From Terrimicrobiaceae bacterium (GTDB lineage: Bacteria > Verrucomicrobiota > Verrucomicrobiia > Chthoniobacterales > Terrimicrobiaceae): DNA of 64,000 nt. This document shows, piece after piece, positions 1-12,140 of the stretch; the first letter of the stretch is position 1; every line of letters starts with the position of its first letter. The stretch covers positions 1-64,000 of the forward strand of contig JBIIPZ010000012.1 of assembly GCA_044342325.1 (NCBI GenBank), in the 5' to 3' direction. A model generated the notes under the pieces. That model did no database searches, was not told the origin of the DNA, and saw only the letters and a program-made list of their open reading frames with translations. The translations under genes and the position numbers were made by a program.

Positions 1-36
1 GGCATACCCCACTATCAGCACACGAGAGGAAGTCCT

Positions 37-834
37 TCAATTCGGTTCATTGCGCTTCCTCGAAAGCGGTGCACGCCTCCCGAAGGTCAGGATGTCTGAT
101 CTTGCGAAGTTTGTGCTTTCTTCGGCGATATCGACATCCATGATCCGGCTGTTCGCGGCCTCAAGGTTTGTGCGGTTTACGGCCAAGATTTCCTGCGCAA
201 ATGTCATGCGAGACTGCTCCGCACCATTGATGGCACGAAGTTCCGCAATATCTTGAATTGCAATTTCAAGCGCAGCAGATGCAGTTGTTGCGTAGTCCAC
301 TGTGGAAATTCCACCCGTCAGCGCTAAAATGTCGGTATCCACCGCATCAAGGTCGGCTTTGGTAATTCCGGCCGTTTGAGTTCCATTCTCCGAGGTAACA
401 ACTGACAATGTTTGACCGCTTGCTGCAAAGAGCGAGATGCCATTGAACTCTTCCGCCAGTAAATCGGACATGTTGGCCTGCAACTCGACAAATTCCTTAT
501 GATAGAGTGCTGTATCGTTGGTTGACACGGTGTCAACCGAAGCCAATGTGGCCAACTCTGCCATGCGAAGGGCGATGGATGATGCCACTTGCAGAACGCC
601 ATCCTGCGATTGCAGGAAGGAAAGCGCATTTCCCACATTAGCAGATACGGCATCCGTGCGACGTATCGCCGCTGAGAGTTTCATTGAGACCGCCAAGCCG
701 CCTGGATCATCGACGGCGGAGTTGATTCGGTAACCGCTTGAAAGCCGGGTGAGGCTTTTTTGCAGATTGCGGTTGTTTTGGTTCAGATGGTAAGAAACCG
801 GCGAGGCGGCTCCTGTAGCATTAAGACTGATCAT
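37..834 (-). CDS. fliC: Short flagellin with aberrant C-terminus (last conserved D0 residues replaced)
   Basis: Flagellin N-terminal motif (RLSSGYRINSAVDDPGGLAVS) and C-terminal motif (GAEQSRM...LEAANSRIMDVDIAEE). It ends ILTFGRRAPLSRKRNEPN instead of ILQQAGTAMLAQANQ. Confidence 0.9.
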   Translation of the reverse strand: MISLNATGAASPVSYHLNQNNRNLQKSLTRLSSGYRINSAVDDPGGLAVSMKLSAAIRRTDAVSANVGNALSFLQSQDGVLQVASSIALRMAELATLASVDTVSTNDTALYHKEFVELQANMSDLLAEEFNGISLFAASGQTLSVVTSENGTQTAGITKADLDAVDTDILALTGGISTVDYATTASAALEIAIQDIAELRAINGAEQSRMTFAQEILAVNRTNLEAANSRIMDVDIAEESTNFARSDILTFGRRAPLSRKRNEPN

Positions 835-906
835 ATGATATTCCTTTCAATTTGCTTGCGGCTTCCGCGCCACGGACGGGTCGAAGTTTGAGTGCTCGGC
901 CTCACT
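835..906 (-). promoter_or_regulatory. Conserved flagellin 5' leader (AGTG-N8-CACT hairpin, GGA-hexaloop hairpin, GGA in Shine-Dalgarno)
   Basis: Sense strand AGTGAGGCCGAGCACT...GTGGC-GCGGAA-GCCGC...AAAGGAATATCAT-ATG; same layout as four other leaders. Confidence 0.75.
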
Positions 907-966
907 TTTGGATTTACACCAAATTTTTTTGTTTTTTAATAAGCTTTTGAAAAAACTAGGTTGAGA

Positions 967-2325
967 TTATAAAATGAGGTTGAACAAGGAACTGTTCATG
1001 GCCACATTAGATTGAGCGATGTAAGCCGTGCCCGCATCCTGCAGAAGCTTTAAACGGGAGAAGTTGACACTCTCGGCAGCAACATCTAAATCGCGAATCT
1101 CACCAAGGGATTCCGTGGCGTGATTCTTAAGCAAAGCATTGGAATCAATCAGATTTCTGATTCGGTTTTGCTTGGCACCATTTAGTGCGATGTATTGCGC
1201 GAGGGTGTCGAAATCGATTAATTCAGTTGTAATTAAAGAATCAACAATTCCATTAAGCGCAGCAGACATATCTGTGTTTGCGCTGGCTAGACTTCCGACC
1301 ACAGCCCCGCTTTGAGAAGTAAGTTGCCTTGTTTCAGTGTCAGAAGGGTCATTTGTAAACAAGTAAAAGTTTACATCATTAGATGATAGCTGTGATGCAA
1401 CACCATTTATTGTCACTCCAGGTTGAACTGGAGGCTCAGAAGGTTCATCTGTGAAGCCAATAACCACTTTTTTGGAGTCTGTATTTTGCCAACCGCCGGC
1501 CACATCAATTGCATCATAAACTCCATCTATCAGGGACTCTCCAAGGCCTCCAACGCCACCTGTAACTTGGCCCCGCAGAGAAGTAAGCTGAGAAGTAAGA
1601 TCTGGTATCGAGCTCACAAAAGCGCCTCCGTTTGGCGCTCTGAAGGTATGCCCTGAAAGGTCTAAACGATACCCAACAGCCTTTGCAGTCCAAGTAGATG
1701 CATTTAATCTAGTAGAGACAGAATTAATAAAACTGCTAATATTTAAGACCACATTATCAATGTATGGCCCCATACTTCCAGAAATATCTGCCAAAAAAAT
1801 CATCTCTAGTGGTTTAGGATCATTCTGCGTAGTAAGATTAAATTGAGATACTGTTTCAGCAGCACTATTGATTAAACCAGTATCGGCATCCATGGAATCC
1901 ATGTCGGAATCTGGCGAAAAGAGCCTTACTCCGTTGAACCTCTCATCACGAATTTGATAAATTTGCGCGATGAGACTGGCCTTCTCGGTGTCATAGATTG
2001 AGATATCCCCTTGTGACTTTATGACATCCTCTTTTTGGATTTCAATTTCTTGAATTCTCGCTAAGATACTCCCGACGCGCTTGAGGTAGGCTTCTTGGGT
2101 CTCTAAAAAGGAGAGCGTGTTTCCCAGGTTCTGACCGAGGGCCGATGACTGGAGCACCTTGTTATTAAACCTCGCCGAGACAGCTACTCCCGCCGGATCA
2201 TCGAAAGAGGAATTTATTCGCAATCCACTCGAAAGACGGGTTATGCTTTGCTTCAGGTTTTGGTTTGTTCTGGCTAAAGTCAATGAAGCAGACATGGGCG
2301 CAGCATTTGAACTTAAGTTGATCAT
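967..2325 (-). CDS. Flagellin with inserted von Willebrand factor A (MIDAS) domain
   Basis: Flagellin N-terminus (RLSSGLRINSSFDDPAGVAVS...FNGVRLF) and C-terminus (NGAKQNRI...IRDLDVAAES...LQDAGTAYIAQSN) flank a ~190-aa insert containing IFLADISGSM (DxSxS) and VVIGFTDEP. Confidence 0.88.
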   Translation of the reverse strand: MINLSSNAAPMSASLTLARTNQNLKQSITRLSSGLRINSSFDDPAGVAVSARFNNKVLQSSALGQNLGNTLSFLETQEAYLKRVGSILARIQEIEIQKEDVIKSQGDISIYDTEKASLIAQIYQIRDERFNGVRLFSPDSDMDSMDADTGLINSAAETVSQFNLTTQNDPKPLEMIFLADISGSMGPYIDNVVLNISSFINSVSTRLNASTWTAKAVGYRLDLSGHTFRAPNGGAFVSSIPDLTSQLTSLRGQVTGGVGGLGESLIDGVYDAIDVAGGWQNTDSKKVVIGFTDEPSEPPVQPGVTINGVASQLSSNDVNFYLFTNDPSDTETRQLTSQSGAVVGSLASANTDMSAALNGIVDSLITTELIDFDTLAQYIALNGAKQNRIRNLIDSNALLKNHATESLGEIRDLDVAAESVNFSRLKLLQDAGTAYIAQSNVAMNSSLFNLIL

Positions 2326-2362
2326 AAGAATTACTCTATATCATTTCTACAGAGCTCTGAGT

Positions 2363-2391
2363 TTCATGCGAGATCAGGAATCTCACATGAA
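2363..2391 (-). other. Stem-loop between the 288-aa flagellin and the vWA-flagellin (no U-tract)
   Basis: TTCATGCGAGAT-CAGGA-ATCTCACATGAA inverted repeat on the + strand; no poly-U follows on the minus strand. Confidence 0.55.
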
Positions 2392-2429
2392 GCCGGTTAA
2401 CCGTGATAGGTTGTAAAAAACAGATGTTT

Positions 2430-3296
2430 TCAGACCAGCAACCGCAAGAGCGACTGGTTGGACTGATTCGCCTGCGCAAGCATTGCTGTTCCAGCTTGCT
2501 GCAGGATGTTCAAGCGAGCCAAGTTCGCGCTTTCTGCTGCGATATCCACATCCGTGATGCGACCGTTGGCTGCTTCGAGATTGGTTTTATTCACCGCAAG
2601 CATATCGGCAGCGAAAGTAAGGCGCACTTGCTCAGATCCATTGGTGGCACGGAGCGTTGCCAATGTTTGGATGGCTTCCGTGATATTGGAAATAGCAGCA
2701 GCAGCTCCTGTTGCGGAAGCAAAGACATCATCTGCAACAATGTCTCCAGTCGAAGAGCTAGTTCCTACGTATCCACTAACAGCAGCTAAATCAAGCTGGG
2801 AAATACCAATAGTCTGCGCACCATCTTCAGAAGTAACAACTTGAAAAGTAACATTGTCTACAGTTGTGTTCAATGTTGCCGAAGAGGCAAATAGACTCAC
2901 GCCATTGAATTTCTCGCCGAGCATGGAAACGATTTGAGATTGTAACGATTCATATTCCGTCTGATACAATGCAGTATCGGTGGAAGACTTTGTAACGTCC
3001 GTCGCCAACTGAATAAGCTCTGACATACGGTTCACCACCTTCTCGGCGCTCTTTAAGACCCCGTCCTGTGTCTGTAACGCTGAAAGCGCATTGTTCACAT
3101 TGGCTTGGGTTGCCTCTGTGCGGCGGATTGAGGCTGACAACTTCATCGAGACTGCCAGACCACCAGCGTCGTCCATCGAAGAATTAATACGCGATCCGCT
3201 CGAAAGCCGGTTGAGGCTCCGTTGCAGGTTCACATTGGTGTTTGAGAGGTTATACGCCGCCGACGTGGACGCCGTGTTTGTGTTTAGACTGATCAT
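2430..3296 (-). CDS. fliC: Short flagellin (288 aa)
   Basis: Complete flagellin N- and C-terminal motifs with a minimal variable region. Confidence 0.96.
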   Translation of the reverse strand: MISLNTNTASTSAAYNLSNTNVNLQRSLNRLSSGSRINSSMDDAGGLAVSMKLSASIRRTEATQANVNNALSALQTQDGVLKSAEKVVNRMSELIQLATDVTKSSTDTALYQTEYESLQSQIVSMLGEKFNGVSLFASSATLNTTVDNVTFQVVTSEDGAQTIGISQLDLAAVSGYVGTSSSTGDIVADDVFASATGAAAAISNITEAIQTLATLRATNGSEQVRLTFAADMLAVNKTNLEAANGRITDVDIAAESANLARLNILQQAGTAMLAQANQSNQSLLRLLV

Positions 3297-3380
3297 TTTA
3301 GTATTCCTTTACTTTTATTTATTTGTGCAGCTTCCGCGCTGCTATCGGGCCGCTTTAACTTTAAGTGTTCGACCTCACTT
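3297..3380 (-). promoter_or_regulatory. Conserved flagellin 5' leader
   Basis: AAGTG-AGGTCGAA-CACTT...GCGGCCCG...GCAGC-GCGGAA-GCTGC...AAAGGAATACTAAA-ATG. Confidence 0.78.
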
Positions 3381-3400
3381 ATTTTTTTCTGATTGAATTT

Positions 3401-3428
3401 AACCACAGAGGACACGGAGAGCACGGAG
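3401..3428 (+). repeat. 9-bp-periodic intergenic repeat (CACRGAG type)
   Basis: AACCACAGAGGACACGGAGAGCACGGAG; related copies at 4545-4572, 45740-45767 and 55696-55721. Confidence 0.7.
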
Positions 3429-3566
3429 GGGGGGCTCCGTAGGCTTATGCACTTTAAGAAAAATACTTTTTTTATTTTACAATACTCACCAGGATATTGG
3501 CTTCCATGCTTCTATCCCGATGAAGATATTGTTCATTAAATTTTGTTAACGGTCTTTGAGAATTCC

Positions 3567-4433
3567 TCAGACGAGCAAGCGCAGGACGGATTGATTCGCC
3601 TGATTCGCTTGGGCAAGCATCGCTGTTCCAGCTTGTTGCAGGATGTTCAAGCGAGCCAAGTTGGCGCTTTCGGATGCAATATCTACATCTGTGATTCGAC
3701 CGTTTGCCGCTTCGAGGTTAGTTTTATTGATCGCAAGCATATCTGCTGCAAATGTCAAACGAACCTGCTCCGAACCATTGGTGGCACGAAGTTCTGCGAG
3801 AGTTTGAATAGCAAGCGTGATATTGCTAATGGCAGCAGCAGCACCTGTGGCTGATGTAAAGGCGTCCGCAGGATCAATCTCTCCAGCATTACCTGAAGCA
3901 GTTCCGACATACCCACCAACGGCTCCCAAGTCCAATTTAGAAATATCAATTCTCTGCTCACCATCCTGTGATGTAACAACTTCCAGCGAAGCATTATCGA
4001 TAGCCACATTTACTCCACCCGCAGTGAACAAGTTGATACCGTTAAACTGCTCACCAAGCATGGATCCTAGTTGGGACTGAAGGGATTGATACTCTGTTTT
4101 ATACAATGCCGTATCAGTTGTGGACTTTGTGACGTCTGCAGCCAACTGAATAAGCTCAGACATCCGGCTTACCACTTTCTCCGCTGTCTTTAATACTCCA
4201 TCTTGAGTCTCAAGGTAGGAAAGTGCGTTATTTACATTGGCTTGGGTGGCTTCCGTCCTACGGATGGAAGCTGACAACTTCATTGAGACGGCCAAACCAC
4301 CGGCGTCGTCCATCGAGGAGTTGATGCGTGAACCGCTCGAAAGCCGATTTAGGCTCCGTTGGAGGTTCACATTGGTGTTACCCAGGTTGTAGGCTGCAGA
4401 TGTTGCTGCAGTATTTGTGTTGATGCTGATCAT
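3567..4433 (-). CDS. fliC: Short flagellin (288 aa)
   Basis: Complete flagellin motifs; closest paralogue of 2430..3296. Confidence 0.96.
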   Translation of the reverse strand: MISINTNTAATSAAYNLGNTNVNLQRSLNRLSSGSRINSSMDDAGGLAVSMKLSASIRRTEATQANVNNALSYLETQDGVLKTAEKVVSRMSELIQLAADVTKSTTDTALYKTEYQSLQSQLGSMLGEQFNGINLFTAGGVNVAIDNASLEVVTSQDGEQRIDISKLDLGAVGGYVGTASGNAGEIDPADAFTSATGAAAAISNITLAIQTLAELRATNGSEQVRLTFAADMLAINKTNLEAANGRITDVDIASESANLARLNILQQAGTAMLAQANQANQSVLRLLV

Positions 4434-4512
4434 TTTAGTATTCCTTTACTTTTGTGTTTTTGCAGCTTCCGCGCTGCCTTCGGGCGATTTTTTCAAGTGT
4501 TTGGCCTCACTT
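4434..4512 (-). promoter_or_regulatory. Conserved flagellin 5' leader
   Basis: AAGTG-AGGCCAAA-CACTT...CGCCCG...GCAGC-GCGGAA-GCTGC...AAAGGAATACTAAA-ATG. Confidence 0.75.
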
Positions 4513-4638
4513 TTTGGAGTTGTTCCAAAATTCTTTTGTTTTTTCACCACGGAGAACACGGAGGTCACGGAGAAGTTTTTGGAGCTCATCTGACTGTGTT
4601 TTGTGGTTCATGGTTAAAATTTGGTTTTTTTGACTGAA

Positions 4639-4698
4639 TCGAAGCGGAGCGGAGAAAGACTGCCCTTGGCAGCCCATGGGGCGAGCGCAGCGAGTCAA
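4639..4698 (+). mobile_element. Short double-hairpin element ending GCGAGTCAA, inserted in a 9-bp repeat
   Basis: TCGA...CTGCC-CTT-GGCAG/GCCC-ATG-GGGC...GCGAGTCAA. Removing it restores TTGACTGAA TTGACGGAA TTAACAAAA, matching the uninterrupted repeat at 4975. Confidence 0.55.
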
Positions 4699-5576
4699 TT
4701 GACGGAATTAACAAAATTGTCGGATCGCTACGAGGTGGGAGGCTGCTAAGCGACAGAGCGGTTGCTTTTCGGCATTGCGATGTGTCTGTTCCTTGAGCTG
4801 AGTAAGCCCTTTGGTTATTGTGTTCCGGTTTTTCACCAGTTTTGTTTCCTTTTCGGTAATTCGTCTGTCTTTTAGTTCATTCTATTTTCCATCCGTGGAT
4901 TCCGGCTGTATGGCGTCCTTGCCTGGCCTAGGGTTATTGTTTTTGTGAAAGTGGGTTTGGAGGGGGCTGGTTTTTTGACAGAATTGACGGAATTAACAAA
5001 ATGGCAGGATTTCCGTGAGATAGGATACTGGTATGAGGCAGTGCTGTGGCTTTTCGGCTTTGCAACGCGCCTCTTCCTTAAGCTCTATAAGCTCTTTGGT
5101 TATTTTTTTCCGGTTTTTCACCAGTTTTGTTTCCTCTTCGGTAATTCGCCCGTCGTTTAGTTCATTCTGTTTTCCATCCGTGGATTGCGGCTGTATGGCG
5201 TCCTTGCCTGGCCTAGTTTAATTGTTTTATTGGGAAATTAAGTTCAGAGGGGTTGGTGGTTTTTTTGACAGAATTGACAGAATTGACAGAATTGACAGGA
5301 TTGACGGGTTTAAAAAAATGGCAGGATTTCCGTGAGATAGGATGCCGGTATGAGGCAGTGCTGTGGCTTTTCGGCTTTGCAGCGCTTTAGGCGGTCTTTG
5401 GTTATTTTGTTCCGGTTTTTCACCAGTTTTGTTTCCTTTTCGGTAATTCGCCTGTCGTTTAGTTCATTCTATTTTTCATCCGTGGATTCCGGCTGTGTGG
5501 CGTCCTTGCCTGGCCTAGGGTTATTGTTTTATTGGGAAATTAAGTTTAGAGGGGTTGGTGGTTTTTTTTCAGAATT
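4699..5576 (-). ncRNA. Three tandem ~290-bp non-coding units rich in GGA motifs; candidate CsrA-binding (CsrB/RsmY-like) RNA
   Basis: Near-identical ~135-bp cores at 4810-4944, 5095-5228 and 5397-5530. The minus strand has GGC-AAGGAC-GCC in all copies, TCC-ACGGAT-GGA in two, and further GGA motifs in A-rich context. The repeat is certain; the RNA function is inferred. Confidence 0.45.
5265..5309 (+). repeat. Tandem 9-mer (TTGACAGAA)n
   Basis: TTGACAGAA x3, then TTGACAGGA and TTGACGGGT. Confidence 0.85.
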
Positions 5577-5637
5577 ATGCGATCATCAGGAGCTTGGAGA
5601 CTGTAATCGTCATTGCGGTTACTTTCATCCAGCCTGG

Positions 5638-5669
5638 ATTGGGGCGGGGTTTAAATCCCCCGCCCCAAT
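5638..5669 (-). other. Strong GC stem-loop 3' of flagellin, no U-tract (stability element or partial terminator)
   Basis: ATTGGGGCGGGG-N8-CCCCGCCCCAAT; homologous stem at 6735-6761. Confidence 0.65.
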
Positions 5670-5688
5670 ACCTCGGTTACCCTGATTC

Positions 5689-6558
5689 TTAGCTAATCAG
5701 TCGGAGGATGGACTGGGTAGATTGGTTCGCCTGGGCGAGCATCGCTGTGCCGGCTTGCTGCAGGATGTTGTAGCGGGCGAGCTTCGTGCTTTCGTCGGCA
5801 ACATCCACATCGAGGATGCGGCTGTTTGCAGACTCGAGGTTGGTTTTGTTCACTGCGAGCATGTCCGCAGCGAAGGTCAACCGGGACTGCTCGGCACCGT
5901 TGTTGGCGCGGAGTGTGGCTAGGTTTTGTATAGCGTCTTGGATGTAACCAACTGCATCATTAGCGTCAGCAGTGGTGCTAATGTCCATATTACTGCCCGA
6001 ATTTGTGTTACAGATATCAAAGACGATCTGATTCAAATCCACTTGTGTGATACCAACAGTCTGATTGCCATCGTGTGATGTAACCACTGTGAGAGTGGAA
6101 CTCTGGCTGATAACTGCATTGTTGGCAGAGGAACTTGCCCCCTCGCTAAACAGACTAATGCCATTGAACTCTTCATCGAGCATCAAAGTGAGCTGGCCCT
6201 TCAGTTGGGTCAGTTCCGTGTTGTAAAGAGCGAGGTCGCTGGTAGATTTGGTCACATCTTGAGCCAGCGTGGCGAGTTCTGACATGCGGTTGAGAATTTT
6301 ATCCGCTGTCTTGATAACTCCGTCCTGAGTTTGAAGGAAGGCGATGGAGTTGTTGACATTGGCCAGGGTGGCGTCTGTGCGGCGGATGGAAGCACTCATC
6401 TTCATGGACACGGCGAGGCCTCCGGCGTCGTCGTAGGATGAGTTGATGCGTGAACCGCTGGAGAGCCTGTTGAGGCTACGCTGGAGGTTCACATTGGTGT
6501 TGCTGAGGTTGTAGGCAGCCGATGTGGCTGCTGAGTTGGTGTTGATTACTACTGACAT
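5689..6558 (-). CDS. fliC: Short flagellin (289 aa)
   Basis: MSVVINTN...RLSSGSRINS and RILDVDVADES...QQAGTAMLAQANQ. Confidence 0.97.
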   Translation of the reverse strand: MSVVINTNSAATSAAYNLSNTNVNLQRSLNRLSSGSRINSSYDDAGGLAVSMKMSASIRRTDATLANVNNSIAFLQTQDGVIKTADKILNRMSELATLAQDVTKSTSDLALYNTELTQLKGQLTLMLDEEFNGISLFSEGASSSANNAVISQSSTLTVVTSHDGNQTVGITQVDLNQIVFDICNTNSGSNMDISTTADANDAVGYIQDAIQNLATLRANNGAEQSRLTFAADMLAVNKTNLESANSRILDVDVADESTKLARYNILQQAGTAMLAQANQSTQSILRLIS

Positions 6559-6630
6559 ATCCTTTGTCTTTCTATGGTGCGAAGTCCGTTTCGCTTTCGG
6601 GCCGCTTTGGTTCAGTGTTCGACCTCACTG
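6559..6630 (-). promoter_or_regulatory. Conserved flagellin 5' leader with canonical ANGGAN hexaloop
   Basis: CAGTG-AGGTCGAA-CACTG...GCGGCCCG...GCGAA-ACGGAC-TTCGC...AAAGGAT-ATG. Confidence 0.8.
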
Positions 6631-6734
6631 GTTTGACTAAATTTTATTGGACAGAATTACTGAATTTCAGAGTTGGAGGCTTTGCTTTTGTCTCAACTCT
6701 GTGGTTTGAACAGCTACTTTCGATGAGCCTGTAT

Positions 6735-6761
6735 TGGGGCGGGGTATGGTCCCCCGCCCCA
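6735..6761 (-). other. Strong GC stem-loop 3' of flagellin, no U-tract
   Basis: TGGGGCGGGG-N7-CCCCGCCCCA. Confidence 0.65.
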
Positions 6762-6782
6762 GTTACTCAGTTACCCTAATTC

Positions 6783-7664
6783 TTAGCTGATCAGTCGGAG
6801 AATCGACTGGGTCGATTGGTTCGCTTGAGCGAGCATCGCGGTGCCGGCCTGCTGCAGGATGTTGTAGCGGGCGAGTTTTGTGCTCTCGTCGGCGACATCC
6901 ACATCGAGGATGCGGCTGTTGGCGGCCTCGAGGTTCGTTTTGTTCACTGCGAGCATGTCCGCAGCGAAGGTCAACCGAGACTGCTCGGCGCCGTTGTTGG
7001 CGCGGAGTGTTGCCAAGTCTTGAATCGCGTCTTGGATATAATCCACGGCATTTTGAGCTGCTGTCGTGGTGGAGATATCCATATTGGAGCTGGAACCTGT
7101 GTTGGTGATGTCAAACACGATCTGGTTCAAGTCGACTTGAGTGATACCAACTGTTTGGTTGCCATCGTGTGATGTAACCACCGTGAGGGTTGGGTTGACA
7201 TCGATGGCGAGACCAGTTGCGGAGGCAGAGCCGCCGGCCGCGACGCCCTCTGAGAAGAGGCTAATGCCATTGAATTCTTCACTCAACATCAAGTTGAGCT
7301 GGCCCTTCAATTGTGTCAGTTCCGTGTTGTAGAGAGCGAGGTCGTTTGTAGATTTCGTCACATCTTGAGCGAGTGTGGCGAGTTCCGACATGCGGTTGAG
7401 GATTTTATCTGCGGTTTTGATGACTCCGTCCTGGGTTTGCAGGAAGGCGATGGAATTGTTGACATTGGCCAAGGTGGCGTCGGTGCGGCGGATGGAAGCG
7501 CTGAGCTTCATCGACACAGCGAGGCCGCCGGCGTCGTCGTAGGCTGAGTTGATGCGTGAACCGCTGGAGAGGCGATTAAGGCTTCTCTGGAGGTTGACGT
7601 TGGTGTTGCTGAGGTTGTAGGCAGCCGATGTGGCGGCTGAGTTGGTGTTGATTACTACTGACAT
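6783..7664 (-). CDS. fliC: Short flagellin (293 aa), first gene of the array
   Basis: Complete flagellin motifs; termini almost identical to 5689..6558. Confidence 0.97.
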   Translation of the reverse strand: MSVVINTNSAATSAAYNLSNTNVNLQRSLNRLSSGSRINSAYDDAGGLAVSMKLSASIRRTDATLANVNNSIAFLQTQDGVIKTADKILNRMSELATLAQDVTKSTNDLALYNTELTQLKGQLNLMLSEEFNGISLFSEGVAAGGSASATGLAIDVNPTLTVVTSHDGNQTVGITQVDLNQIVFDITNTGSSSNMDISTTTAAQNAVDYIQDAIQDLATLRANNGAEQSRLTFAADMLAVNKTNLEAANSRILDVDVADESTKLARYNILQQAGTAMLAQANQSTQSILRLIS

Positions 7665-7736
7665 ATCCTTTGTCTTTCTATGGTGCGAAGTCCGTCTCGC
7701 TGGCGGGCCGCTTTGGTTCAGTGTTCGACCTCACTG
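7665..7736 (-). promoter_or_regulatory. Conserved flagellin 5' leader with canonical ANGGAN hexaloop
   Basis: CAGTG-AGGTCGAA-CACTG...GCGGCCCG...GCGAG-ACGGAC-TTCGC...AAAGGAT-ATG. Confidence 0.8.
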
Positions 7737-7760
7737 GGGGAGTTTCCTCCGTTAGGTTAT

Positions 7761-7788
7761 CTATCGGCAGACAATTGATGGGGCTTTA
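7761..7788 (-). promoter_or_regulatory. Sigma28 (FliA/SigD)-type promoter
   Basis: Minus strand TAAA-N16-GCCGATAG, ~100 nt upstream of the first flagellin ATG; known consensus TAAA-N15/16-GCCGATAA. Confidence 0.85.
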
Positions 7789-7901
7789 GAAAAAATTTAA
7801 AAAAATTTTCTCTATGTCCGCAGAGCCTCTCTGGGATTGGGTCTGCGGACGGACGAGCCGCAGGAAAAACGAGGTGTCAGAATCGAGAAGGAGAAAAAAT
7901 C

Positions 7902-9101
7902 TCAGAGCTTGTGGCCCATTTTTTTCTTTTTGGTCTCGAGATAGCGGGCGTTGTGAGGGTTTGCGACGGAGCGGATGGGGAGCTGCTCGACGATTTGGAG
8001 GTCGTAGGCCTCGAGGCCGACGACTTTGCGGGGGTTATTGGTGAGGAGGCGGATTTTGTGGATGCCGAGGTCAGCGAGGATTTGCGCGCCGAGGCCGTAG
8101 TCGCGGAGGTCCATGGGGAAACCAAGGCGCTCGTTGGCTTCGACGGTGTCGAGGCCCTGCTCCTGCAATTTGTAGGCGCGGATTTTGGGTCCGAGGCCGA
8201 TGCCACGGCCTTCCTGGCGCATGTAGAGGAGAACTCCGGCGCCTTCTTTTTCGATGCGCTGCATGGCCTGGTGGAGCTGGGATCCGCAGTCGCAGCGGCG
8301 AGAGGCGAAGACATCGCCCGTGAGGCATTCGCTGTGAACCCGCACCAGGGCTGGCTTTGCGGCGGAGATTTCGCCTTTGACGAGCGCGATGTGGTGCATG
8401 CCATCAACAAGTGAGCGATAGAGGTGGAGGTTGAAATCCCCATAGTCAGTGGGCATGTGGACCGTTTCTTCGTGCTCGACGAGCTTCTCACCTTTGCGGC
8501 GGTGGGCGATGAGATCTTGGATGGAACACATCTTGAGCCCGTGTTTCTTTTTGAAGCGGACAAGATCCGGCAGGCGGGCCATGGAGCCGTCCTCTTTCAT
8601 GATTTCGCAAATGACTCCGGAGGCATCGAGACCTGCGAGGCGGGCGAGATCGACGGCGGCCTCGGTGTGGCCAGCGCGGCGCAGAACACCGCCAGCCTTG
8701 GCTTGGAGGGGAAATACATGCCCTGGCTGAACAAGGTCGGAGGGTTGTGCCTTGGGGTTGGCGAGCAGACGGATCGTGGCGGCGCGGTCTTTCACGCTGA
8801 TGCCTGTGGTCACGCCCTTGGCGGCATCCACCGAGACGGTGAAATCGGTTTTAAAAAACTCTCGGTTCTGTGCAACCATTCGCTGAAGGCCGAGACTGGC
8901 AGCGCGCTCCTCGGTAACTGGCGCGCAGATGAGCCCACGACCGAACTTTGCCATGAAATTGATAGCAGCGGGAGTGACCTTGGCGGCAGCCATGAGGAGA
9001 TCGCCCTCGTTCTCGCGGTCGGCGTCGTCGGTGACAACCACCATGCGTCCTCGACGGATGTCGGCAATGACTTCGGGAATCGGATCGAATGGTGTTTTCA
9101 T
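7902..9101 (-). CDS. ribBA: Bifunctional DHBP synthase / GTP cyclohydrolase II
   Basis: DDADRENEGD, RRAGHTEA, RVHSECLTGD and CDCG motifs. Confidence 0.97.
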   Translation of the reverse strand: MKTPFDPIPEVIADIRRGRMVVVTDDADRENEGDLLMAAAKVTPAAINFMAKFGRGLICAPVTEERAASLGLQRMVAQNREFFKTDFTVSVDAAKGVTTGISVKDRAATIRLLANPKAQPSDLVQPGHVFPLQAKAGGVLRRAGHTEAAVDLARLAGLDASGVICEIMKEDGSMARLPDLVRFKKKHGLKMCSIQDLIAHRRKGEKLVEHEETVHMPTDYGDFNLHLYRSLVDGMHHIALVKGEISAAKPALVRVHSECLTGDVFASRRCDCGSQLHQAMQRIEKEGAGVLLYMRQEGRGIGLGPKIRAYKLQEQGLDTVEANERLGFPMDLRDYGLGAQILADLGIHKIRLLTNNPRKVVGLEAYDLQIVEQLPIRSVANPHNARYLETKKKKMGHKL

Positions 9102-9140
9102 GTGTGAAATCGATAGCACAAGGCTCTCGAGCGGGGAAGA

Positions 9141-9590
9141 TCAGCGCGCTTCAGAGAGGACAAGTTTCAGAATTTTCTGCTGGGTTACGGCCATTTTTTT
9201 GGCATCCGGCTCCGAGATGTCATCGAAGCCGGAGAGGTGCAGGAGACCGTGGATGATGTAGAGGGCGAGTTCCTGGGTTGTGCTGTGGCCAAACTCTGGA
9301 GCGCGGGCTGCGGCGACCGAGGCGCAGACCAAAATCTCGCCGTAGGGAAAAGTGATGACATCCGTTGCGCCGCGAATGTCCAGAAAGTCGCGGTGCACTT
9401 TCGCCATGGCGCGGGAGCCCAGAATGCTGATCTCGACACCCGACAGAGCAGCCAGCTCAGCGTTGTTTTTTTTTGCGAGAGTGAGGCAGTGGGGAATGGC
9501 TGCCTCTGCCAGGCACTCCAGAAGCTCGCGATCGTAGGCAGTGGAGCGGGCGTTGTGGGATAGAGATGTTTTCAGCAGCGGCGACCTCAC
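9141..9590 (-). CDS. ybeY: rRNA maturation RNase YbeY
   Basis: TDVITF and HGLLHLSGFD motifs; lies in the phoH-HD-ybeY operon. Confidence 0.9.
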   Translation of the reverse strand: MRSPLLKTSLSHNARSTAYDRELLECLAEAAIPHCLTLAKKNNAELAALSGVEISILGSRAMAKVHRDFLDIRGATDVITFPYGEILVCASVAAARAPEFGHSTTQELALYIIHGLLHLSGFDDISEPDAKKMAVTQQKILKLVLSEAR

Positions 9591-11167
9591 GCAGCGGATT
9601 TTTGTTCGCGTTTTTCCGGTGTGGAGCGTTCCTCGCGTTTCGGGTAGGCGATGCGAGCGTGGAGCATGTTGACGAGCGAGAAGCGGAAGCTGTCGGCGAT
9701 TTTCCAGATCTCGGCGATGGTCAGAGGAGCCTCGTCGAGTTGTCCCTCATCGAGTCGCGCTTTGATGATATTGCGGATGAGATCGTCGATGCGTTGTGGC
9801 GTGGGGCGGTCGAGACTGCGCGAGGCGCTTTCGATCGAGTCGGCGAGGCTCACGATGGCGGCCTCCTTCGTCTGCGGGCGGGGTCCGGGGTAGCGGAAAC
9901 TCTCCTCGCTCACCTCGGGAATATCCTCCTCGCGCATGTTCATGATTTTTCCGCCAAGGCGAGCATCCTCCTGTTGCTGCAGGGCACGCTGGTAGAAATA
10001 CGAAACCATGGAGGTGCCGTGATGCTGGCTGATGACATCGATGATCTCGGCGTTGAGCTTGTTTTTGAGGGCCAGATCCACGCCCTCCTTCACATGGGAG
10101 ATGATAATGAGAGCACTCATCGTCGGAGTGAGGTCGTCGTGGGGATTCAAGCCGTGGGGGATGTTTTCGGTGAAGTAGTGAGGTTTTACGACCTTGCCGA
10201 TGTCGTGGAAATACGAGGCGACGCGGCAGATTGTGGGGTTCGCTCCGACGACTTCTGCGGCGGCTTCCGAGAGGTTCGCGACGGCCAGGCTGTGATGGTA
10301 GGTGCCCGGTGCCTCAAGGCTGAGACGCTTGAGGAGCGGGTGGTTCAGGTCGCTCATCTCCAACCACGAGATGTCGGTGGTGATTTTGAAAACATGCTCG
10401 AGCATTGGCAGGATGCCGCTGACGACGATGGCTGTGGCAATGCCGGTGGCAAAGGCCGCCAAGCTCTGCCATCCAATCATGGCCCAGTCGGTCTGTGAGG
10501 GCACTTCCCAAATTACTGGGCCGATCTGGCCAAACGCGGCGGCGAGAATCCAAGTGGCGAGCCCCACATAGACACCGGCCCGCACGAGGCGACTGCGGCG
10601 ACGGACTTGCAGCGTCACAAAAACACCGATGAAACCGGTGATCAGCGAAATCACCAAAAACACCGGGTCGATGCGGCCGACAAGGAGCGAGCCCCAGAGG
10701 CTGGAAAAAACGGCGGCGTAGAGCCCGTGATTCCGCCCTAGGAGCACGGAGAGCACAAGAGGTGCGAAGGCGTAGGGAATCAGAAGCGGAGCGAGTTGGA
10801 GGTCGAGTGATCCTGCAGCGGCCTGACTGAGGAGGATTTTGATGACAGCCAACTGCGCGAGTAATGTTCCCAACACGAGGCAGAGGAGGGAATTTTGCCG
10901 AAATGTCTGGGGATGGTTGATCCAGAGTTGCGCAACAGCCGTGGCAAAAATGAGCAGGCAGAGCAGGAACTTTTTGGCGGGTTCATCCTGCTGGCCAGTG
11001 AAAATGAGCGCCGCGAGGCCGAAGATGAAAGCGGCGAGCAGAACGGCACGGATCGGCCAGCCATTTTGAAGGGCAGAGAGAAAATTGCTCTCCTCGACCT
11101 GACGACGCCGCTTGCTGGAGGAAAGCCCCTTCCAGACGAGTCGCCAGCGTTTGAAGATTCCGAACAT
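9587..11167 (-). CDS. 7TM-HD membrane phosphohydrolase (YqfF/PgpH family)
   Basis: Multiple TM segments, then APGTYHHS, FHDIGK, HHGT and LADSIE. Confidence 0.92.
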   Translation of the reverse strand: MFGIFKRWRLVWKGLSSSKRRRQVEESNFLSALQNGWPIRAVLLAAFIFGLAALIFTGQQDEPAKKFLLCLLIFATAVAQLWINHPQTFRQNSLLCLVLGTLLAQLAVIKILLSQAAAGSLDLQLAPLLIPYAFAPLVLSVLLGRNHGLYAAVFSSLWGSLLVGRIDPVFLVISLITGFIGVFVTLQVRRRSRLVRAGVYVGLATWILAAAFGQIGPVIWEVPSQTDWAMIGWQSLAAFATGIATAIVVSGILPMLEHVFKITTDISWLEMSDLNHPLLKRLSLEAPGTYHHSLAVANLSEAAAEVVGANPTICRVASYFHDIGKVVKPHYFTENIPHGLNPHDDLTPTMSALIIISHVKEGVDLALKNKLNAEIIDVISQHHGTSMVSYFYQRALQQQEDARLGGKIMNMREEDIPEVSEESFRYPGPRPQTKEAAIVSLADSIESASRSLDRPTPQRIDDLIRNIIKARLDEGQLDEAPLTIAEIWKIADSFRFSLVNMLHARIAYPKREERSTPEKREQKSAA

Positions 11168-11168
11168 T

Positions 11169-12140
11169 TTAGATTCTGCTTTCCCGTGAGCCCCGGTGGT
11201 TTTTGTAGGCCAGGATCACGGCCTGGACGAGTGGATGCCGCACGACATCCTTCTCGGTGAAAAAGTGCATTCCTATGCCATCGACATCCCTGAGTGCGGC
11301 GACGGCTTCTACAAGGCCGCTGAGCTTGTTTCGTGGAAGATCAATCTGTGTGACATCTCCCGTCACCACGCAGCGAGAGCCAAGGCCGAGGCGGGTAAGG
11401 AACATGAGCATCTGCTCGGCGGTGGTGTTTTGAGCTTCGTCGAGGATGACAAAAGACCCGCTCAAGGTGCGTCCGCGCATGTAGGCGAGCGGAGCGATTT
11501 CGATGATGTTTTTATCCATGAGCTTCTGCAGCTCATCCGGCTCCAGAAGGTCGTGCAGCGCATCGTAGAGAGGACGCAGATAGGGAAGAATTTTTTCCTG
11601 CAGGTCACCGGGCAGGAAACCCAGAGCCTCGCCTGCTTCGACGGCTGGCCTGGTGAGAATGAGTCGTTTCACTTTTTCCTGCTTGAGAGCGGCTACGGCG
11701 GATGCCACAGCAAGGTAGGTTTTTCCGGTTCCTGCTGGGCCGACGCCGAAAGTGATGTCGTGGGACTGGATCGCCTGAACATAGGTTTTTTGTCCAGCGG
11801 TGCGAGGGACGACCGGGGGCTTGCGTGGGGAGCACTGGATACGGATATCAATGAGGCTGGCGAGGGATTCTGCAGAGCCTGGCCCCTTTGAAGCCTCCAA
11901 AGCGTGCTCGAATTCTTGGCGATGGATGGTGATGCCCCGCTTGACGGCGGCATGGAGTTGCTCGAGGGCATCGCGCGCACGCTCGACTGCAACCTTTTCG
12001 CCCTCCACGCGAATCCATCCATCGCGCGCGGTGATGCGGACTTCGAGGCGATGTTCCAACTCGTGGAGCAGCTTGGGGTCGCCTCCGTAAACGGCCTGCG
12101 CGGTGCGGGCGTTCTCGAATTCCAGCGTGAGGGTTTCCAT
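11169..12140 (-). CDS. phoH: PhoH family ATPase
   Basis: GPAGTGKT, RPAVEAGE and DEAQN motifs. Confidence 0.96.
   Translation of the reverse strand: METLTLEFENARTAQAVYGGDPKLLHELEHRLEVRITARDGWIRVEGEKVAVERARDALEQLHAAVKRGITIHRQEFEHALEASKGPGSAESLASLIDIRIQCSPRKPPVVPRTAGQKTYVQAIQSHDITFGVGPAGTGKTYLAVASAVAALKQEKVKRLILTRPAVEAGEALGFLPGDLQEKILPYLRPLYDALHDLLEPDELQKLMDKNIIEIAPLAYMRGRTLSGSFVILDEAQNTTAEQMLMFLTRLGLGSRCVVTGDVTQIDLPRNKLSGLVEAVAALRDVDGIGMHFFTEKDVVRHPLVQAVILAYKNHRGSRESRI

Follow-up and report, generated by a model that had tools for sequence, protein, structure and literature searches.

Results

A probable pseudoknot precedes the putative CsrA operator of flagellin leaders

The leaders of five flagellin genes in a 64,000-nucleotide stretch of a Terrimicrobiaceae bacterium (contig JBIIPZ010000012.1, assembly GCA_044342325.1; hereafter the window) carry, upstream of a putative CsrA operator, a module that we interpret with high confidence as a compact H-type pseudoknot, a fold supported by covariation. 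Judged by sequence comparison, this leader feature is real and conserved across orders. Six flagellin-family open reading frames (ORFs) lie on the minus strand within positions 1-7800 of the window, and the motif precedes five of them, being absent at 967-2325 (Table 1). The initial annotation had described four elements in front of these five genes (an AGTG-N8-CACT hairpin, a CCCG block, a stem with a GGA hexaloop and a second GGA in the Shine-Dalgarno sequence, SD), and all four were found where it had placed them, on the minus strand. Its first two elements are better described as one fold followed by a CG that is indeed conserved, since the first two C of the CCCG block belong to the 3' strand of stem 2 (S2), which they close, and the CG alone is unpaired. 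The consensus fold consists of stem 1 (S1, 5 bp), a 1-nt loop (L1), S2 (5-6 bp), an A-rich loop (L3) and then the near-invariant CG. The pairing of the GGUCG loop with downstream CGGCC, proposed as a possible pseudoknot, is perfect in three copies and reaches 4/5 in the other two (835-906 and 4434-4512), and it shows compensatory change in large alignments from three orders. S1 covaries as claimed; its outer pair, said to covary as well, is an A-C mismatch in the copy at 835-906, leaving S1 with 4 bp there.

For the covariation analysis, 314 distinct flagellin leaders were collected, their rows anchored on the GGA hairpin (P3), and sequence-only MAFFT alignments were made. The first (A1, 83 rows) derives from the 87 of 90 leaders of the genus that were anchored, with five dropped (three sigma54-type, two without likeness) and one sister-family leader added; the second (A2, 89 rows) holds all the anchored ones among 104 Opitutaceae-centred leaders, misfits kept, the group labels being our own. 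Each paired cell stands for a sequence and not for an event, the counts of covariation carry no correction for phylogeny, and the structure was first read from the same sequences. In A1, the knot and P3 are paired in 91.4% of cells (S1 93.8%, S2 83.3%, P3 98.8%), compared to 78.7% in shuffled and 25-36% in slid controls, and 13 of the 16 pairs change on both sides, including 5/5 pairs of S1 and 4/6 of S2, whose sixth pair is open in 65 of 80 rows. The stem sequence of A2 is unrelated to that of A1; its cells are paired at 90.3% (75.5% shuffled, 28-47% slid) and 16/16 pairs change on both sides. Covariation, on which the initial annotation had made its reading depend, holds against both kinds of control. 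Nested folding of seven single leaders gave unremarkable z-scores (-2.0 to +0.2), the program being unable to fold knots.

The fold recurs in a third order of the class (centre G404), in which flagellin was present in 104 of 201 genomes and 36 leaders were taken from the 30 best loci. Although the register slips, 70.8% of S2 cells are paired there, and two-sided changes occur at 7/8 pairs; S1 is short and mostly invariant (two core pairs paired at 83% and 100%, a third column almost all gaps). Immediately 5' of this knot, and following a 5' hairpin, comes a second, tandem pseudoknot, with 98.9% pairing in S2 (4/5 double changes), 93.3% in the S1 core (1/3) and 52.9% at the outer pair. The main safeguard for the fold is this replication in three orders with differing sequence; the third-order and window knots may be homologous or convergent. 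In other Opitutales families the knot topology was seen by eye, MAFFT giving no alignment of 30 leaders from them; leaders of two families of other classes (f52 and f54) showed, by eye, plain hairpins and no pseudoknot. The third-order loci L215-L243 carry, 100-170 nt upstream of the flagellin starts, a tetraloop hairpin, two tandem pseudoknots, a GGA hairpin, a GNRA-like hairpin and another GGA hairpin, with the SD inside it.

A covariance model built from the 83 leaders of A1 (R1) gave seven matches in the own genome (2.93 Mb, 86% complete), at 59-78 bits, all before flagellins and all in its training set; the next match was partial (26 bits). The search of other flagellin leaders proposed in the initial annotation found R1 in 37 of 40 other genomes of the genus at E<=0.01, two of the 37 being weak. 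The Opitutaceae-set model (R2), run over 150 genomes, matched six, all of family f19, did not reach the own genome and scored the window copies weakly. The distribution is therefore under-counted, because sequence-based models do not bridge orders.

Leader elements lie downstream of a predicted promoter

The first gene of the cluster is preceded by a promoter match (Table 1) to a consensus that we take to be that of sigma28 (FliA), with a predicted transcription start at about 7753-7755; the promoter lies 25 nt upstream of the pseudoknot element. Because the leader motif is downstream of this promoter, it is predicted to lie in RNA; on the same prediction, the promoter stands upstream of the AGTG-N8-CACT element, which the initial annotation had considered as a possible DNA site. 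The pattern TAAAG-N14-16-CCGAT has a single match in the window and is weak alone, as 16 of 100 shuffles give at least one. A sigma28-type promoter stands at equal spacing before the copies on contigs C20 and C44, in 47 first-gene leaders (chosen by eye for having a promoter) and in most of 35 third-order leaders, and FliA is encoded in the own genome. Leader copy 2 gave no sigma28 match of its own in a pattern scan of the window, and a scan for sigma70 promoters and terminators was at chance level.

The predicted primary transcript starts with a 4-bp hairpin (P0). In 37 internal leaders of the Opitutaceae set, a U-rich tract and a covarying hairpin precede the pseudoknot, and 4/6 pairs of this P0-like hairpin change on both sides. 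The promoter, P0 (7750-7739) and the C20 and C44 copies are additions to the initial annotation. Twenty-two RNA runs are listed for the region (best share 0.20, the others small). One RNA-library contig spans 7601-7733 with zero differences, which agrees with transcription without proving it; such libraries can hold DNA, and contigs give no start. No contig covered 7750-7857 in four RNA runs, which may reflect divergence among relatives and is no evidence for the start site.

The CG that follows the pseudoknot

Several partners were considered for the near-invariant CG directly 3' of S2. A third helix with the CG of the GGA loop was rejected: it shows zero two-sided changes in A1 or A2, and it is also contradicted by the third order, where the same upstream letters pair with ACGG, AUGG and AGGG loops alike. 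Pairing with the 5' strand of S1 is found in 64% of A2 cells, with no covariation support; pairing with L1 plus the first S2 base reaches 86%, below the shuffled mean and with no double change. The CG with its 3-nt linker is not kept in the third order.

The CsrA/FliW operator module

From homology and gene content, P3 and the GGA of the SD very probably constitute a CsrA operator whose repression is relieved by FliW, in agreement with the initial annotation. A CsrA dimer would bind the GGA hexaloop and the GGA in the SD, blocking translation, and flagellin export would free FliW, which would then remove CsrA. P3 is paired in 99.3% of A2 cells, with compensatory change here and in A1, and is predicted to fold in 7/7 leaders tested; the GGA of its loop is invariant in A1, whose rows were anchored on GGA. 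The second GGA is part of an AAGGA located 1-8 nt before the ATG in all five window copies. The own genome encodes csrA, on whose presence the reading hinged, side by side with fliW behind flgL on contig C24, with flgK adjacent. The best PDB match of this CsrA is 5dmb_D, over residues 2-70 (the long, FliW-binding type). In a chosen set, csrA was present in 43/43 flagellin-bearing and 1/10 flagellin-less genomes; fliW was present in 30/30 genomes. No flbT, as FlbT/FlaF control would call for, was found in the own genome (86% complete; relatives lay outside the search). In Opitutaceae and relatives (L058, L059, L140, L193, L198 and others), a further flagellin-like gene without the leader motif lies directly behind csrA.

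The flagellin cluster and its leader copies

Ten Flagellin_N matches were found in the own genome, seven of them with the leader (the five in the window and those on contigs C20 and C44); the three without it are the 452-aa gene, a gene on contig C12 with a sigma54-like leader, and flgL. The pattern GTGAGGYCRARCAC, allowing up to one mismatch, has six matches in the window: the five leader copies, all exact, and a one-mismatch site at 7105 on the plus strand. Shuffles give 0.22 expected matches and 0/100 of them reach six, a significance that is overstated because the pattern was built from these copies. Copy 3 has one C-C mismatch in S2 and a 6-bp hairpin predicted by folding just upstream; copy 5 has a C-A mismatch in S2 and one extra A-U pair.

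Table 1 Features of the flagellin cluster and its leaders in the window.
Feature	Positions	Strand	Basis
sigma28 (FliA)-type promoter, TAAAG-N15-GCCGATAG; -35 at 7788-7784, -10 at 7768-7761	7761..7788	-	pattern match
P0, 5'-proximal 4-bp hairpin of the predicted primary transcript	7739..7750	-	folding
Putative H-type pseudoknot of the first gene: S1 7736-7732/7723-7719; L1 7731; S2 7730-7726/7710-7706; A-rich L3 7718-7711	7706..7736	-	
Near-invariant CG directly 3' of S2, then 3-nt linker	7704..7705	-	at least 90% conserved in A1 and A2
P3, 5-bp stem with ACGGAC hexaloop (candidate CsrA site 1)	7685..7700	-	98.8% of A1 cells paired
AAGGA, SD and candidate CsrA site 2	7666..7670	-	sequence
Flagellin, 293 aa, first gene of the cluster	6783..7664	-	Pfam Flagellin_N and Flagellin_C
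Leader copy 2: pseudoknot 6630-6600, CG 6599-6598, P3 6594-6579, SD 6564-6560	6559..6630	-	R1, 76.5 bits
Flagellin, 289 aa	5689..6558	-	Pfam search
Leader copy 3: pseudoknot 4512-4483, CG 4482-4481, P3 4477-4462, SD 4446-4442	4434..4512	-	R1, 77.7 bits
Flagellin, 288 aa	3567..4433	-	Pfam search
Leader copy 4: pseudoknot 3380-3348, CG 3347-3346, P3 3342-3327	3297..3380	-	R1, 72.2 bits
Flagellin, 288 aa	2430..3296	-	Pfam search
Long flagellin-family protein, 452 aa, without leader motif	967..2325	-	no match to R1
Leader copy 5: pseudoknot 906-879, CG 878-877, P3 873-858	835..906	-	R1, 58.9 bits
Flagellin, 265 aa	37..834	-	Pfam search

Other features of the cluster were observed. The last ~16 codons of the 265-aa flagellin (window 37-95), near the contig start, diverge abruptly from orthologs that are otherwise 98% identical, likely a truncation or an assembly artefact. 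The 452-aa protein (967-2325) has a ~240-aa insert with no Pfam match and a DxSGSM motif that resembles that of the vWA domain; a long palindrome at about 2350-2390 precedes its gene. Between two flagellin genes (4620-5530), a direct repeat of ~250-300 nt, non-coding and degenerate, occurs about three times and includes tandem units of 9 nt. In relatives, full pseudoknot and GGA leaders also precede ORFs of 135-143 aa (L037:2210-2641, minus strand; L168:2123-2530, plus strand; L173 about 2850-3300, plus strand) whose ends resemble those of flagellin. Their products are 31% and 20% identical to the 293-aa flagellin, match no Flagellin family of Pfam and may be degenerate or decoy mini-flagellins. 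A further class of flagellin-like genes (G000:C12 about 68000; L038, L175, L176, L179, L181), with a sigma54-like promoter, lacks the pseudoknot, and several of its members have a GGA-loop hairpin.

Discussion

Comparison with known leader RNAs

The CsrA/FliW flagellin operator is already known; the pseudoknot module on it is without a description in the literature covered. Like the hag leader of Bacillus subtilis and the flaA leader of Campylobacter jejuni, the window leaders combine a GGA hexaloop, a GGA at the SD, a sigma28-type promoter and csrA/fliW adjacent behind flgK-flgL (PMC6529632, PMC4894983). Unlike them, they add a conserved CG and, 5' of the operator, a pseudoknot (a tandem pair in one order), and are repeated before promoter-less internal genes; the available parts of PMC6529632 and PMC4894983 describe no pseudoknot in hag or flaA. 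A small H-type pseudoknot with coaxial stems, about 70 nt before the start codon, also occurs in the T4/T2 gene 32 messenger RNA (mRNA), which is cut by RNase E just upstream of the knot and is unusually stable (PMC3014915). The knots of gene 32 and of Escherichia coli rpsO differ in being autoregulatory sites for the encoded protein, the knot being followed here by a putative CsrA operator, and neither sequence likeness nor an Rfam match to them was found. The H-type topology and A-rich L3 recall the preQ1-I, SAM-II and guanidine-III riboswitches, from which the leaders differ by an L1 of 1 nt, few invariant bases and the lack of an expression platform. Work on obstacles to RNase E scanning reportedly also includes a riboswitch case. 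The leaders resemble such obstacles in having an H-type knot with 8-15 coaxial base pairs in the 5' untranslated region, upstream of the region to be protected (PMC9943677); the knots described there are viral or telomerase-derived and placed in E. coli reporters, unlike the present one, which would be natural, constitutive, class-wide and confined to one gene family.

The initial annotation had suggested an undescribed motif, and Rfam gave no match even at E<=5 over window positions 1-12000, and sub-threshold, unrelated matches only for 16 related and 16 third-order loci. Searches on flagellin leaders, CsrA, pseudoknots and RNA motifs of Verrucomicrobia or Opitutus found no description of this module, subscription journals lying outside the coverage. 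The available main texts of PMC5737381, PMC2864571 and PMC13443453 do not mention Verrucomicrobia or Opitutus, and their supplements could list such a motif.

A possible obstacle to RNase E/G

Comparative data give the module order 5' hairpin, pseudoknot, GGA hairpin and GGA-bearing SD on flagellin-family genes. The reading that we favour, to which we give about an even chance, is that the 5' hairpin and the pseudoknot block scanning by RNase E/G and so stabilise flagellin mRNA while CsrA holds it untranslated. RNase E/G that scans from a monophosphorylated 5' end would meet the knot as a constitutive obstacle whose effect depends on its size, and the mRNA would stay intact while CsrA leaves it ribosome-free. 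For the internal, promoter-less copies, cleavage of the cluster transcript by RNase E/G, in the A/U-rich tract in front of each hairpin, would yield separately stabilised, CsrA-controlled single-gene mRNAs. A stem free in sequence, with the fold kept and duplicated in tandem, is as expected if bulk and not sequence matters, and the position between the sigma28 promoter (or the U-rich tract and hairpin) and the CsrA site fits the same reading. RNase E/G was found in the own genome and in 30/30 others, and it retains the residues that align to R169 and T170 of the E. coli enzyme, which belong to the 5' sensor of RNase E. RNase J was found at E<=1e-30 in 0/30 genomes, the own genome giving a partial, below-cutoff match, and for this reason an exoribonuclease-resistant, RNase J-blocking RNA does not fit; RNase Y was present in 22 of 31 genomes of a phylum sample and in 0/5 from the own order. 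Scanning by RNase E bypasses stem-loops and is impeded by H-type pseudoknots, in proportion to the coaxial base pairs that these contain (PMC9943677). The gene 32 precedent, in which RNase E cuts 4 nt before the pseudoknot of the most stable T4 mRNA (PMC3014915), fits the obstacle reading, and in C. jejuni the flaA mRNA becomes less stable under repression (PMC4894983).

Several points weigh against an obstacle of this kind. Pseudoknots of 9-11 bp were a 'modest' obstacle in E. coli (PMC9943677), and two window copies out of five have a mismatched S2. An obstacle that acts by size only accounts neither for the near-invariant first G of S2 nor for the CG. RNase E/G is also present in lineages without a visible pseudoknot (f52, f54), so its presence does not discriminate. 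The CsrA-dependent loss of the hag transcript is part of homeostasis in B. subtilis (PMC6529632), and stabilisation need not be favoured because loss of the repressed transcript is part of control there. The counts behind the fold, uncorrected for phylogeny, come in A1 from an alignment rich in near-identical paralogs.

Alternative functions of the pseudoknot

The main rival, possible though in our view unlikely, is that a protein acting with or against CsrA docks on the pseudoknot. The protein might be FliW, a flagellar regulator specific to the lineage, or ribosomal protein S1, in which case the knot would enhance translation or serve as a standby site. In A1, the near-invariant G, the CG and its constant 3-nt spacing from the GGA hairpin resemble recognition features, but stem sequences and loop lengths vary widely among orders and the CG with its linker is the feature that the third order lacks. 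Restriction of the motif to flagellin-family genes (R1 search, own genome) would suit a dedicated factor; of the candidates, ribosomal protein S1 binds pseudoknots, FliW is present also where no pseudoknot was seen by eye, and FlbT was the regulator sought without success in the incomplete own genome. FliW has been reported to bind the hag leader of B. subtilis for a reason not known (PMC6529632), and pseudoknot operators exist, as in T4 gene 32 (PMC3014915).

Two further explanations appear improbable, to a similar degree. The leader could be a conformational switch or riboswitch, the pseudoknot alternating with an extended hairpin formed when the CG is paired to the 5' strand of S1, so as to tune CsrA access or translation. 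Flagellar genes are under riboswitch control in some bacteria, and nested folding predicts the alternative in the first gene and in A1 (its two pairs are possible in 80 and 81 of 83 rows); however, the 64% pairing of this alternative in A2 comes with almost no covariation, a ligand pocket would have few invariant nucleotides to draw on, the SD is untouched in both states, and no Rfam riboswitch matched. The knot could instead be a folding insulator, keeping the GGA hairpin and the SD accessible by tying up GC-rich 5' sequence, or pausing RNA polymerase for CsrA loading. The adjacency of the pseudoknot to a P3 that is predicted to fold in every leader tested, and a structure kept while its sequence is free, agree with an insulator; a plain hairpin would suffice for it, though, and P0 is already present, and neither the tandem knots nor the knotted topology kept across orders is accounted for. 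That AGTG-N8-CACT is a DNA palindrome for a transcription factor (it loosely resembles a CRP-type site), or that the likeness of the leaders, which belong to paralogs, reflects recent gene duplication, is very improbable and largely refuted: the element is 3' of the predicted sigma28 promoter, its arms swap sequence yet keep their pairs (including G-U), its spacer covaries with a segment that lies downstream at a varying distance of 8-12 nt, and orders with unrelated sequence share the fold.

Significance

These leaders add a cis-RNA family with strong covariation, absent from Rfam, in three or more orders of Verrucomicrobiae, which are abundant and little studied, and they extend the CsrA-FliW flagellin checkpoint to this class; the CsrA half alone is ordinary. 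A wider proposal, which we put forward as doubtful speculation, is that the Verrucomicrobiae evolved a modular pseudoknot 'armour', a natural and constitutive RNase E/G roadblock, in tandem in one order, whose invariant G/CG corner would be recognised by a flagellar factor, FliW or a different one. In that case the flagellin-FliW-CsrA checkpoint would have a further output in how long the mRNA lasts, and the cell's CsrA sponge would consist of the stabilised leaders. If the pseudoknot is a protein site, it may explain the report of FliW binding to a flagellin leader. If the stability reading is true, the leaders would be a natural test case, in single and tandem versions, for coaxial RNA structures setting mRNA lifetime by blocking RNase E.

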